From UHGV virus genome UHGV-0192751: a stretch of DNA of 12,489 nt; one strand, 5' to 3'. The translations under genes were made by a program, and so were the position numbers. The DNA is from a virus. The number at the start of each line of letters is the position of its first letter. Position 1 is the stretch's first letter. The notes beneath the pieces were generated by a model, which did not search any database, had not been told where the DNA came from, and worked only from the letters and a program-made list of their open reading frames with translations. Of this stretch, positions 8,816 to 12,489 are shown piece after piece.

Positions 8816-9492
8816 GCAAATACACCGAACTGATCACTAACTACCACGCTACCAAGCCACTCTTTTTTGACCATATAGATCTGAGCACCCGCCCGCTGAT
8901 TGATGTGTCCAGCACTATGTCAGGGCTTATAACAGCCTTCGATATCGATACTGCTGTCGGTGTACAGCTCGACATCCTCGGTCTGTGGATCGGACGCAGT
9001 CGCATAGTCAGCCAGCCAATTAGCGGAGTTTATTTCAGCTGGGACACTGACGGGCTTGGGTATGACCAGGGCATCTGGCAAGGGCCATATGATCCTGATT
9101 CTGGCTATACGACGCTAAGCGATGAGACGTACCGCATCATTCTGAAAGCGAAAATCACTATCAACAACTGGGACGGTCGGAACGACTCTCTGCCTCCCAT
9201 CCTTGACGCTGCGACTGCAGGCTCAGGCCTGAAGATGCAGATCGTCGACAACCAGGACATGACGATATCGGTCTGGGTATTCCCCGAGACTGATATTTCT
9301 GATGTGTCTCTTGAACTGATTGCCGCTATCAAACAGGGCTATCTCACCGTTAAAGCAGCTGGCGTATGGGCCGGTGATGTTGAAACGCCTTCGGTAGAAG
9401 CACCATCCGAAGGCTCTAAATTCTTTGGGTTTGATATGGATAACGAATACATCGGTGGGTTCGATGTTGGAGCATGGGGGACAATACTCTAA
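8812..9492 (+). CDS. Baseplate wedge / tail protein (P2 gpI / Mu gp48-like)
   Basis: ATGA overlap with the upstream gene. 226 aa, directly before the tail fibre gene. Confidence 0.6.
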   Translation: MSKYTELITNYHATKPLFFDHIDLSTRPLIDVSSTMSGLITAFDIDTAVGVQLDILGLWIGRSRIVSQPISGVYFSWDTDGLGYDQGIWQGPYDPDSGYTTLSDETYRIILKAKITINNWDGRNDSLPPILDAATAGSGLKMQIVDNQDMTISVWVFPETDISDVSLELIAAIKQGYLTVKAAGVWAGDVETPSVEAPSEGSKFFGFDMDNEYIGGFDVGAWGTIL

Positions 9493-10922
9493 TGGCAACA
9501 AACAACTTTAAACCGTTCGCGACAGCGGCAAATGCTAACGTGACGGCCCAGGCTGACTGGGAAGCGCTTCCGGCTCTACTCTCTGGCTTCATGGCAGGAA
9601 AAGCATCCAGTGCGCAGGTAAACAAAGCCATTCGACAGGCCAGCTTTATTGCGGCAGCACTGGCACAGTACACGGCCAACAAAAGCGGGCTGGACGTGCT
9701 TGATGATGGTGATCTGAACGGGTTTATCTCCAAAATGGGGACCGCTTTTGGGAAGGATTTCCAGGCACTTGATGCCACGCTGACGGCATTGGCTGGGCTC
9801 GCAACCGGTGCAAATAAACTCCCGTATTTCACTGGAAATGATACTGCAGCTTTGACCGACCTCACTCAGGTAGGCCGAGACATTATCGGTAAAAGCACTA
9901 TTGCCGACATTCTCACATACCTTGGCTTATCAGATGCTTTTCTAATAAAAGATAAATATCTTTCTGCAAGCCTGAATCTCAACACTCTAGGGGGTGATGG
10001 CAAATATGGTATTTATGCTCAGCCTGTAACAAATAACGCCAGTTTATCAAAAAATTATCCTACTCAGGAGGCAGGGAGTTTACTGGTTACACCCGCAGCG
10101 AATAACGGAATGCAGATTTACACAACGCTCAGCGGAAATGTATGGTCAAGAACCTCCCTTGATAACACCAACACACAATGGAGTTCGTGGGTAAGACCTG
10201 GTTTTAAAACCTTAGATAAAAACATAGATTTGAACTATCTGGGCGGAGTTGATAAATATGGTTTTTATGGTCAATCAGTAAGCAATGATGCAACGCCAGA
10301 AAATAACTATCCGGTGAAGGAAGCCGGAACACTCCTGGTGTCGCCAGCGGCATACAATGGACTACAGGTATATATCACTCTCAGTGGCTTAATTTGGTCA
10401 AGGCACTCCCTGGATAGTACAAATACCAACTGGAGTCAGTGGGTTCGACAGGCATTAAAAAGTGAACTAGATGACGGGCTTGCTCTCAAATTCGATTCAT
10501 CGTCACTTTCAACGACTGGGAAAGCATTAGTAGCAAAATCGACAGTTGCTGATATGCGAACCTACCTTCAACTCTTTTCAGCAGCACAGCGTGATGTGGG
10601 GACCGGGGCTAATCAGATACCGGATATGAATGCCTTCTCGGGAAGCATTGTTTCAAAAGGTTATCAAAAGTTTCCGGGCGGCCTAATTATTCAGTGGGGA
10701 ATAAATAATGCGTCTGTAGGTGGGACGTCAGGTAATGGTGAAGATGTTTCCTATGCCATTCCGTTTCCTAATGGATGCCTGTCACTCACTGCGACATTTG
10801 ATAATGGCGGTCCTGTCATACCTGCCGCTGCTGCATCTTTTGTAGACAATGTTTATTTTAAGCTCCGCTGCTCAGAGGCAAGCGGATCGTATATTTTTCG
10901 CTGGATTGCACTGGGATTCTGA
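9474..10922 (+). CDS. Tail fibre protein with mosaic architecture
   Basis: The stretch LDATLTALAGLATGANKLPYFTGNDTAALTDLTQVGRDIIGKSTIADILTYLGL matches, from memory, the conserved segment of P2 H-type fibres. After it come two tandem domains of about 75 aa and a C-terminal tip containing QKFPGGLIIQWG. An alternative start at ATG 9492 overlaps the upstream stop (TAATG). Confidence 0.8.
   Translation: MGDNTLMATNNFKPFATAANANVTAQADWEALPALLSGFMAGKASSAQVNKAIRQASFIAAALAQYTANKSGLDVLDDGDLNGFISKMGTAFGKDFQALDATLTALAGLATGANKLPYFTGNDTAALTDLTQVGRDIIGKSTIADILTYLGLSDAFLIKDKYLSASLNLNTLGGDGKYGIYAQPVTNNASLSKNYPTQEAGSLLVTPAANNGMQIYTTLSGNVWSRTSLDNTNTQWSSWVRPGFKTLDKNIDLNYLGGVDKYGFYGQSVSNDATPENNYPVKEAGTLLVSPAAYNGLQVYITLSGLIWSRHSLDSTNTNWSQWVRQALKSELDDGLALKFDSSSLSTTGKALVAKSTVADMRTYLQLFSAAQRDVGTGANQIPDMNAFSGSIVSKGYQKFPGGLIIQWGINNASVGGTSGNGEDVSYAIPFPNGCLSLTATFDNGGPVIPAAAASFVDNVYFKLRCSEASGSYIFRWIALGF
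9972..10196 (+). repeat. Tail fibre internal domain repeat, copy 1 (protein-level tandem duplication)
   Basis: Residues 167-241, LNLNTLGGDGKYGIYAQPV...NYPTQEAGSLLVTPAANNGMQIYTTLSGNVWSRTSLDNTNTQWSSWVR, align with copy 2. Confidence 0.6.
10230..10448 (+). repeat. Tail fibre internal domain repeat, copy 2
   Basis: Residues 253-325, LNYLGGVDKYGFYGQSV...NYPVKEAGTLLVSPAAYNGLQVYITLSGLIWSRHSLDSTNTNWSQWVR. Roughly 60% identical to copy 1 at the protein level by eye; the DNA has diverged. Confidence 0.6.
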
Positions 10923-10924
10923 TT

Positions 10925-11353
10925 ATGGATTATTTATTTTCACCCTCTACGCGTGGTTTTTATCCTGAGCCAATGCGGAAAATTTATGAACAGGCTGCAT
11001 CACTCCCATCTGACACGGTGGTGGTATCTGAAGATGTCAGAAATACATACAACGACACGCCACCGCCCGGGAAATGCCTGATTGTTGTAGATGGGTTGCC
11101 TGCATGGGGAGACATCCCGCCACCGTCCCATGATGAAATGATTAAAGCTGCTGAAACCGAACGCAGTCGTCTTCTAAGTCACGCCGATACCACCACAGCA
11201 GACTGGCGCACTGAGCTGGCGCTGGGTGAAATTAGTGATTCAGATAAGGCGCAGCTGTCTGCATGGATGGCCTATAAACGAGATGTAAAAGCCATTTCAG
11301 CGGAAACAGCTATCTCATCTGGCTTTAAGTGGCCTGAACAGCCGAAGATGTAA
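10925..11353 (+). CDS. Tail fibre assembly protein (Tfa chaperone)
   Basis: 142 aa directly downstream of the fibre. N-terminus MDYLFSPSTRGFYP and C-terminus ...AWMAYKRDVKAISAETAISSGFKWPEQP resemble the Tfa family. Confidence 0.75.
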   Translation: MDYLFSPSTRGFYPEPMRKIYEQAASLPSDTVVVSEDVRNTYNDTPPPGKCLIVVDGLPAWGDIPPPSHDEMIKAAETERSRLLSHADTTTADWRTELALGEISDSDKAQLSAWMAYKRDVKAISAETAISSGFKWPEQPKM

Positions 11354-11372
11354 AAGGAACCTTTGGGAGAAT

Positions 11373-11448: not shown

Positions 11449-11757
11449 TTAAAATATCTCATTGGGTCGCAATGAAGCTTCGGTTTTCTTCTTTCTCCAA
11501 TACTCATATCCCTGAGAAGTCACTCGGAGGGAACTTAAATCAATCATCCAACTTCCTTCATTAGTGCCAGAACTATCAAAGCTGACCTTGCCTTTCAAAA
11601 AACCGTCATCGTGTAAAAATGCAATGTATCCATAGGCTTCTTTGAAATTTCCGATTTCATCGACCAGATCCTTCCATGCTGCATCAGTAAGGCTTTCAGG
11701 ATAGGCGTCAACGAAATATTTGAGGGTGGTGATTTTTTTAGGGTGGCTGATGTTCAT
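11449..11757 (-). CDS. Hypothetical cytoplasmic protein, opposite-strand cargo gene between Tfa and invertase
   Basis: AAGGAG (complement of 11764-11769) is 6 nt upstream of ATG (complement of 11755-11757). The 102-aa product MNISHPKKITTLKYFVDAYPESLTDAAWKDLVDEIGNFKEAYGYIAFLHDDGFLKGKVSF... has no signal peptide or transmembrane segment. AT-rich. The track's longer start at 11802 lacks a ribosome-binding site. Confidence 0.6.
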   Translation of the reverse strand: MNISHPKKITTLKYFVDAYPESLTDAAWKDLVDEIGNFKEAYGYIAFLHDDGFLKGKVSFDSSGTNEGSWMIDLSSLRVTSQGYEYWRKKKTEASLRPNEIF

Positions 11758-11859
11758 TGGAGTCTCCTTTTTTGACCGGTCAATTTTATCATAAATTGGC
11801 ATGGCAATTTGGGATGGTCCAATCAGGCCTTCACACCAAACGTACAGTGGCTGGTCTTG

Positions 11860-11873
11860 TTAGCCATGGCTAA
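11860..11873. promoter_or_regulatory. Perfect 14-bp palindrome TTAGCCATGGCTAA in a divergent intergenic region (candidate operator)
   Basis: Exact reverse-complement symmetry. It overlaps a possible promoter for the invertase (TTGTTA, 16 nt spacer, TATTAA) and an adjacent palindromic AT tract AAAATATTTT (11883-11892). Confidence 0.3.
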
Positions 11874-11971
11874 AGAGCTATTAAAATATTTTGTCTCACT
11901 AAAAATACGAATCCATTTACTGTCGTAACTTTAGTGAAACGCTTTCGCGCTTTTAATGAACCGCTTCACTC

Positions 11972-12489
11972 ATACTTATTGGCTACGTGAGAGTGTCAAC
12001 AAATGATCAGAACACTGCACTCCAGCGAAACGCGCTCGAGAGTGCAGGATGTGAGCTGATTTTCAAAGACAAGATCAGCGGTAAGGTGTCCGACAGACCG
12101 AGATTAAAAAAGGTGCTCCGGACGCTATCTGAAGGCGATACGTTGGTGGCGTGGAAATTGGATCGGCTTGGTCGCAGCATGCGACATCTTTTTGTGTTAG
12201 TGGAGGAACTGCGGGAGAAGGGGGTTAACTTTCGGAGCCTGACGGATAGCATCGATACGAGTACGCCTATGGGGCGGTTCTTCTTTCATGTCATGGGGGC
12301 TATGGCAGAAATGGAAAGGGAACTGATTGTCGAATGTACCCGGGCAGGATTGGCGGTTGCGCGCAGAAGGGCGGATCGGCGGCCGCAGGCCAAAGTTAAC
12401 GGATGAGCAGTGGCGGGAAATGGGGGAGCGGATGGCAACCGGTGAATCACGACAAAGCGTATCAAAAACGTATGGAGTAGGGCTCTCAA
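11972..12489 (+). pseudogene. Invertase locus interpreted as a pseudogene (start codon lost, internal frameshift); 3' end beyond the window
   Basis: In-frame ATA at 11972-11974 where ATG is expected. Frame change at the GCGCGC tract 12359-12364: the 0 frame stops at 12404-12406 while the +1 frame continues with recognisable family sequence to the window end. Confidence 0.5.
11987..12406 (+). CDS. Site-specific DNA invertase, serine recombinase (Hin/Gin/Cin/Pin family), catalytic domain; apparently disrupted
   Basis: RVSTNDQNTALQRNAL...WKLDRLGRS...SLTDSIDTSTPMGRFFFHVMGAMAEMERELIV is the family catalytic domain with the Ser in VSTNDQ. The only canonical start is GTG 11987; the position where homologs begin MLIGY reads ATA CTT ATT GGC TAC (11972-11986). 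The C-terminal helix-turn-helix domain is encoded in the +1 frame after about 12363 (EGRIGGRRPKLTDEQW...). Confidence 0.7.
   Translation: MRVSTNDQNTALQRNALESAGCELIFKDKISGKVSDRPRLKKVLRTLSEGDTLVAWKLDRLGRSMRHLFVLVEELREKGVNFRSLTDSIDTSTPMGRFFFHVMGAMAEMERELIVECTRAGLAVARRRADRRPQAKVNG

Follow-up and report, generated by a model that had tools for sequence, protein, structure and literature searches.

Does a prophage tail-fibre locus whose invertase gene is broken still carry the crossover sites of an invertible segment, and what has become of the DNA between them? We asked this for the virus genome UHGV-0192751, a stretch of 12,489 nucleotides (called the window throughout) that contains the tail and baseplate end of a prophage and, toward its right end, a tail-fibre gene, the tail-fibre assembly gene tfa, a reverse-strand cargo gene and a Pin-like serine invertase pseudogene. 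A first-pass annotation, made from the sequence by eye, had reported that no recognisable crossover sites surround the fibre genes and had proposed that the invertible segment was lost or replaced by the cargo gene. Our analysis indicates that this interval is probably a fixed, decaying derivative of a tail-fibre inversion module of the Pin/Gin/Cin type.

The course of events that we propose is as follows. In working relatives, two inverted 26-bp sites bracket two opposed cassettes, each composed of a variable fibre part (Sv) and a tfa gene. The left site is located at the joint between the constant fibre part (Sc) and Sv, the right one shortly before the invertase gene, and the serine invertase cuts both sites at the central dinucleotide and flips the segment. 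In the window, the interior appears to have been swapped for a single Sv-tfa cassette (9924-11357), joined exactly at both centres, so that the outer half of each site is its own and canonical, whereas the inner half comes from the cassette and is non-canonical. The gap between the right-site centre and the invertase start is filled by a cargo module with its own outer half-site, and the invertase has lost its ATG as well as, by a 2-bp deletion, its DNA-binding domain.

Hybrid crossover sites at the borders of the Sv-tfa cassette

When window positions 9400-12489 were used as a megablast query against 5,426 complete E. coli genomes, 228 genomes matched, and among the matches listed the fibre homology ended at query positions 524-532, which correspond to window positions 9923-9931. 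From this homology stop, Sc extends to 9923 and Sv begins at 9924. The joint is occupied by the left hybrid crossover site TTCTCACATACC-TT-GGCTTATCAGAT (9910-9935, plus strand; centre TT at 9922-9923), a canonical outer half joined to a degenerate inner one. The same outer half TTCTCACATACC was found in the left sites of the related loci L001, L003, L004 and L010, and L003, L004, L010 and L013 all retain TTCTCACATACC-TT-GG and then diverge at once. Also, the same Sv is joined in P2-like H genes and in other fibre backbones after TTCTCCAAAACC-TT, CTCTCGAAAACC-TT or TTCTCGAATACC-TT, and six distinct left outer halves from unrelated fibre backbones all fit the site. All backbones fused to this Sv use the leucine codons CTC and CTT, and this uniformity argues for a constraint at the DNA level and not only at the protein level.

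Similarly, a right hybrid crossover site, AGATGTAAAAGG-AA-CCTTTGGGAGAA (11346-11371, plus strand; centre AA at 11358-11359), follows the tfa stop codon. Its inner half is the 3' end of tfa and degenerate, and its outer half is canonical, reading TTCTCCCAAAGG on the minus strand. Ten loci share identical tfa DNA up to ...GATGTAAAAGG AA C (...AAAAGG AA C) and then continue into eight different sequences. All eight diverging flanks open with a half-site-like 12-mer of the form C[CG]TTT...AA (position-specific p values from <1e-4 to 0.006), examples being CCTTTGGGAGAA, CCTTTGATAGAA, CGTTTTTAATAA and CGTTTGCCGGAA. In L023, an intact invertase gene follows the outer half CGTTTTTAATAA after 54 nt, a spacing equal to that between pixR and pinE in the E. 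coli K-12 cryptic prophage e14. The outer half CCTTTGGGAGAA, together with the cargo, was also encountered behind several other tfa 3' ends, and the joint was always GG-AA-C. Judged by its position in these alignments, 11346-11371 is the right crossover site, and the tfa end supplies its inner half. Left and right sites have opposite orientations, their centres match (TT/AA), and each combines one canonical outer half with one degenerate inner half. They are 26-bp hybrids and not full sites, and their positions are validated by the homology breakpoints.

Sites of this kind are difficult to recognise by consensus. In agreement with the first-pass annotation, the strict core AAACC-NN-GGTTT (AAACCNNGGTTT) has no occurrence in the window, and allowing up to two mismatches gave 6 matches when 5.1 were expected by chance; one two-mismatch match (9917-9928) is the core of the left 26-mer. 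What that annotation missed were the two hybrid sites at the homology breakpoints. We scanned the window with two weight matrices, one built from published sites only and the other extended by the sites of the relatives. With the extended matrix, the two outer halves were the two best half-sites of the whole window (left, 15.6 bits; right, 13.7 bits), and with published sites only, the left outer half scored 13.0 bits (rank 1) and the right one 10.0 bits (rank 6). The inner halves scored 0.6 bits (left; 0.1-0.6 over both matrices) and -2.9 bits (right) with the published-sites matrix, and those of other single-cassette loci ranged from -5.5 to -0.4 bits and those of two-cassette relatives from 9.6 to 11.9 bits. 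At the two positions, fixed beforehand and independently by the breakpoints, position-specific p values of 1e-4 and 3e-4 were obtained, and a position-specific enrichment was also seen in the other eight right flanks and in five other left halves.

A generic inverted-repeat search of 9000-12489 returned nothing matching the two described sites, because too few bases are common to both. A third site between the cargo gene and the invertase gene (11803-11971) was considered and rejected, the best 26-mer there scoring -5.5 bits. The palindrome GGTTTTAAAACC at 10200-10211, dismissed earlier for its wrong arrangement, is indeed not a crossover site: it is coding (RPGFKT), scores merely 5.7 bits as a half-site, has no partner and lies at the joint of two repeats of an 84-aa domain. 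This domain is tandemly duplicated in the fibre (window 9960-10463; 58% identity between copies), and one copy is present in the 392-aa fibres of the relatives L009 and L011 and of P2-like loci.

Bounded by the two site centres, the Sv-tfa cassette (9924-11357, plus strand) comprises the receptor-binding part of the fibre and its assembly chaperone, the 142-aa product of tfa (10925-11353, plus strand; Pfam Caudo_TAP, E=1.6e-23). The locus L010 represents the same prophage with another cassette: homology to the window, at 97.6-99.6% identity, covers 9400-9925 and resumes at 11355, the stretch in between being the only difference, a clean cassette swap at both centres. Loci L016-L025, in which the cassette itself is 88-100% identical, fall into at least five backbones, and its joints are always at these positions. 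Many assemblies and at least five phage backbones (P2-like, this prophage type and others) carry its 142-aa tfa protein without change, and in the assembly collection 147 blocks index an identical protein. These distributions indicate that the Sv-tfa cassette is a horizontally mobile unit. Single-cassette loci with an intact invertase gene include L003, L023 and L024, all of which lack the cargo, and L010/L013.

In several cassette-bearing loci, the block encoding gpU, tape measure, tube and sheath lies on the opposite strand directly after tfa, cargo or invertase gene. The loci compared for the orientation of this block, among them P2-like ones and L022, were L017, L019, L020, L022 and L024 (about 6430-12429). 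In P2 (L041) and in L025 the block runs in the same direction, and L019 and L017 carry only invertase-gene fragments at the joint with the opposite-strand block. The reversed arrangement may be a lineage trait or the product of a large inversion.

Cargo module, invertase pseudogene and neighbouring genes

The cargo module (11359 to about 11968, minus strand) consists of an outer half-site, a hairpin, a 117-aa gene (11449-11802, minus strand) and its upstream region. In the P2-like loci L017 and L022, which have the cargo and no invertase, homology to the window spans 11300-11968, and the homology of the invertase region starts at 11968 for L023 and 11949 for L001. From these limits, the module runs from the centre of the right site to the invertase start, outside the cassette and with its own outer half-site. 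Furthermore, the cargo-free single-cassette loci L003, L023 and L024 argue that the cargo did not displace a second fibre set. Such a set is absent from the window, where the list of open reading frames (ORFs) and Pfam revealed one fibre C-terminus and one Caudo_TAP gene, as the first-pass annotation had stated, and the reverse-strand ORF is related to neither of them. The proposal that the invertible segment had been lost or replaced by the cargo is therefore only partly upheld: a working two-cassette switch is missing, but the sites were not erased, the cargo lies beyond the cassette borders and some single-cassette relatives have no cargo.

The hairpin GCCCGGC-ATG-GCCGGGC (11373-11389), located between the right site and the 3' end of the cargo gene, has a perfect 7-bp stem and travels with the cargo module; in a diverged version in L021 the stem is kept and the loop is different. 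A promoter and terminator scan of 11300-12050 called nothing, the hairpin being passed over because it lacks a T-run. For the 117-aa cargo protein, no match was obtained in PHROG, PADLOC or PDB, and the only Pfam match, to the winged-helix-like YjcQ, was below threshold (E=0.007). In the 170-bp divergent region between this gene and the invertase gene (11803-11971), an 18-nt inverted repeat (11893-11910 and 11923-11940) was noticed, which could be a candidate operator.

The Pin-like serine invertase pseudogene (11972-12489, plus strand) runs off the end of the window. Its lesions were read by aligning it with cin, gin and pinE and with the copies of L010/L013. The frame corresponding to those of pinE, cin and gin opens with ILIGYVRVSTNDQ and has ATA at 11972-11974 as compared to ATG or GTG in the others, and this ATA start is common to all cargo-linked copies, including those of L010 and L013 with otherwise intact frames. 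One explanation would be low expression from the ATA itself or from a non-canonical start nearby; the other, that the entire lineage became inactive some time ago. The invertases of L010/L013, read on the reverse complement, are called from a downstream GTG and have 178-179 aa. In the window and in several identical contigs, a 2-bp deletion between 12362 and 12363 places the helix-turn-helix (HTH) domain out of frame, so that the frameshifted protein ends after 139-144 aa and the HTH is readable in another frame only. Correspondingly, Pfam recognised only the Resolvase N-domain (E=2e-46), with the catalytic domain and the VRVSTNDQ motif present; an intact invertase with both catalytic and HTH domains is not encoded. 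A 99.8% identical copy is annotated as frameshifted in RefSeq. Other cargo-linked invertase genes are also decayed or gone, L021 retaining the HTH part only and L017 the last ~50 nt only.

Within this pseudogene, the Fis-consensus 15-mer GTGCAGGATGTGAGC (12042-12056, plus strand) lies at +71 of the invertase gene, in the region that aligns with the annotated enhancer of P1 cin, and cin and gin have the same pattern at the same position. For P1, the annotated enhancer spans +19 to +90 of cin, and the aligned stretch is conserved in the window. The 15-mer is therefore a probable remnant of a recombinational enhancer.

Upstream of the cassette, the window contains a tape-measure gene (1148-3163), the baseplate J gene (7616-8815) and a DUF2612/wedge gene (8812-9492), followed by the tail-fibre gene (9492-10922, plus strand; ORF list; Pfam Gp53-like_C, E=2e-14). 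The longest fibre ORF begins at 9474, whereas gene callers and relatives begin at 9492 (ATGGCAACAAAC), at the DUF2612 stop codon, and the resulting 476-aa version, which is called on identical contigs, is the likelier product. Three small ORFs between the baseplate-region genes (5087-6218) resemble inserted accessory genes with no assigned function; the ORF at 5087-5497 belongs to phrog_3443 and has a signal-peptide-like N-terminus, that at 5579-5935 belongs to phrog_4293, and the third occupies 5916-6218. In identical contigs the prophage adjoins yciI-tonB of E. coli. In L002 (NZ_CM132654, E. coli strain mip270_04; 4795-6972), everything upstream of window position 11546 has been lost to an IS3-family element. 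A truncated cargo gene and the same frameshifted invertase gene are left next to yciI, so that the same prophage is seen here in a more advanced state of decay.

Present orientation and comparison with known inversion systems

All 12 contigs read that share the backbone show one orientation of the segment, as does every cassette-sharing contig examined, and the two orientations were not seen side by side in populations, for which the samples are tiny. For an inverted segment 9924-11357, the junctions ACATACCTTCCTTTTACATCTTCGG and ATCTGATAAGCCAACCTTTGGGAGAA are predicted, that is, the strings ...ACATACC TT CCTTTTACATCTTCGG... and ...ATCTGATAAGCC AA CCTTTGGGAGAA..., and the fibre would be truncated to a 154-aa stub ending ...ILTYLPFTSSAVQAT. 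A search of IMG/VR for the inverted-state junctions found none, though the normal junction was present there just once. In the JGI metagenomes, the junction pattern for either state gave seven matches, none of them related to the window: L031 and L032, with C after the centre AA, have no similarity to it, and the other five have unrelated flanks. When a synthetic inverted junction of the single cassette of L003 was compared with the 5,426 E. coli genomes, no spanning match was obtained, the cassette occurring in 4 genomes only. These junction searches are uninformative because the cassette is rare in the collections. Given the single orientation and the invertase lesions, the segment presumably no longer inverts.

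An intact module is kept by the related prophage L001 of E. coli strain 44 (NZ_CM132959), whose baseplate, DUF2612 and Sc genes are about 92% identical to those of the window. Of its inverted pair of sites, TTCTCACATACCTTGGTCTGGGAGAA occupies the corresponding place in the fibre gene and TTCTCCCAGACCAACGTTTGCGAAAA lies shortly before the invertase gene; the pair belongs to the family of cix, gix and pix (sites read from P1, Mu and e14; tabulated in PMC3241671). Its left outer half, TTCTCACATACC-TT, is identical to that of the window. Unlike the window, L001 has the arrangement Sv-U-U'-Sv', canonical inner halves (GGTCTGGGAGAA and TTCTCCCAGACC), an ATG-initiated 188-aa invertase and no cargo.

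The P segment of e14 with its invertase Pin has sites of the same family as the window, whose right outer half is TTCTCCCAAAGG. The e14 sites, read from NC_000913, are pixL, CTCTCGAAAACC-TT-GGTTTGGGAGAA, and pixR, TTCTCCCAAACC-AA-CGTTTATGAAAA, and the outer half of pixL, CTCTCGAAAACC, equals the junction half of one of the backbones fused to the Sv of the window. Both have a left site at the Sc/Sv joint and a right one near the invertase gene, and the first 364 nt of the window invertase gene have about 76% DNA identity to pinE. However, e14 possesses the opposed cassettes stfP-tfaP and tfaE-stfE and an intact pinE, whereas the window has one cassette, degenerate inner halves, a 600-bp cargo module before the invertase gene and an invertase pseudogene. 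The G segment of Mu with Gin and the C segment of P1 with Cin share with the window the order Sc, site, Sv and U, followed by the invertase gene, whose 5' end contains the enhancer in Mu and P1 and its probable remnant in the window, and differ from it by two cassettes and fully symmetric sites, with the centres GA/TC in Mu and AA/TT in P1.

Two further systems resemble the window in its decayed or asymmetric features. Gene H of P2 contains a relic gix-like site, TTATCGAATATC-TC-GGTTTACAGGAA (L041, 2858-2883), with the inner half of Mu gixL, and the reverse-strand conversion gene fun(Z) directly follows the tfa gene G, in the slot that the cargo occupies in the window. In contrast to the window, P2 has no invertase gene and no right-hand relic was found after G; P2 keeps the inner half well, the window the outer halves. 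The mix sites of the Min system of p15B consist of a conserved half, AA and a variable poor half, as in TTCCCCTAAACC-AA-CGTTTTTATGCC (PMC3241671, Table 3). Such one-good-half sites resemble the hybrid sites of the window, but p15B has six sites and several actively shuffling cassettes, whereas the window has two sites, one cassette and no active enzyme. Iida and colleagues reportedly observed that Cin recombines with quasi-sites.

Relic crossover sites have been described at the borders of exchanged host-range cassettes of fibre genes (Sandmeier, 1994; Haggard-Ljungquist, 1992), as cited in passages of PMC3945230 and PMC8986868. Here too, a site-like sequence stands at the homology breakpoint of otherwise unrelated fibre genes. 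Two opposed Sv-tfa cassettes between the sites were not found. Lacking three defining features of Pin/Gin/Cin switches, namely an intact invertase, two full sites and two cassettes, the locus is a remnant.

Competing explanations and meaning of the remnant

Several points weigh against our interpretation. The left outer half is coding (ILTYLGL), and its conservation alone is no proof of a role at the DNA level. In dinucleotide shuffles, half-sites reaching 10 bits number 3.5 per window on average; in the matrix search the left outer half ranked first, but the pair did not exceed chance by matrix alone, so that such a scan by itself does not establish a site pair and the right site is uncallable without comparative data. 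Site-specific recombination and recombination by short homology are indistinguishable from sequence, the case for non-inversion rests on small samples, and a resident invertase acting in trans, for example Pin of e14, may act on the segment, although we judge residual switching of this kind improbable. The half-site likeness might even be due to coincidence or coding constraint, with the borders just marking the ends of genes, as the non-significant matrix scan, the conserved peptide encoded by the left half and the position of the right junction at the tfa end would allow. Such an explanation is hardly credible, since the right outer half is non-coding and yet half-site-like in eight independent contexts, the six left outer halves in unrelated backbones fit the site with the same leucine codons, and the distance to the invertase gene in L023 is that of pixR in e14.

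That no crossover sites are left, and that the cargo gene physically replaced an alternative fibre set inside the former invertible segment, would agree with the lack of a full consensus site and of a second fibre/tfa set, and with a cargo on the opposite strand, where U'-Sv' stands in relatives such as L001. We consider this quite unlikely, as outer half-sites persist at both borders of the cassette and the cargo module extends outside it, from the right-site centre to the invertase start. Moreover, L023 has the identical tfa end, AA and an outer half before an intact invertase gene, with neither cargo nor second set, and the second set must therefore have been lost independently of the cargo. 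Another possibility is that the single cassette operates as an ON/OFF switch between the full fibre and the 154-aa stub, by means of its hybrid sites and of an invertase that acts in trans or, in the case of relatives, is encoded by the intact adjacent gene. The inverted orientation and compatible centres of the sites, the enhancer-like sequence that has been kept and the existence of single-cassette loci with an intact invertase (L003, L023, L024 and L010/L013) speak for it, as does the fact that hixR and several mix sites, published as functional Din sites, have one poor half (PMC3241671, Table 3). However, both inner halves score near or below zero bits, the window's own invertase is without a DNA-binding domain, the inverted state was seen in no contig or genome examined, and that state would give only a truncated fibre with no obvious benefit; there is little chance that such a switch operates.

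We therefore favour a fixed, decaying module, in which cassette and cargo were presumably installed by recombination at crossover sites, either mediated by an invertase or through short homology at the half-sites. Sandmeier is said to have proposed such recombination at conserved crossover half-sites in 1994. Cassette and cargo module have each recombined independently of their flanks, and both are present in this DUF2612-type prophage, in P2-like phages, some with an invertase and some without, and in further backbones. Tentatively, and with some doubt on our part, Din crossover sites might serve, beyond inversion, as portable docking points for the exchange of receptor cassettes and of neighbouring accessory genes between unrelated phages. 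If true, this would explain intact invertases beside single, non-switchable cassettes, as in L003, L023 and L024, and if the invertase made the joints, the process would be a natural form of recombinase-mediated cassette exchange.

No new mechanism is revealed by this locus, which reflects ordinary prophage decay and a known kind of relic. For annotation, the fibre of this prophage should be marked as fixed and its invertase as dead. The corrected negative call demonstrates that crossover sites with one half exchanged escape scans by eye or by consensus, whereas breakpoints of homology locate such sites to the nucleotide. In addition, an accessory gene is seen to travel with a half-site, and the locus provides a clean illustration, across multiple backbones, of the old idea that host-range cassettes are exchanged as units bounded by invertase sites.

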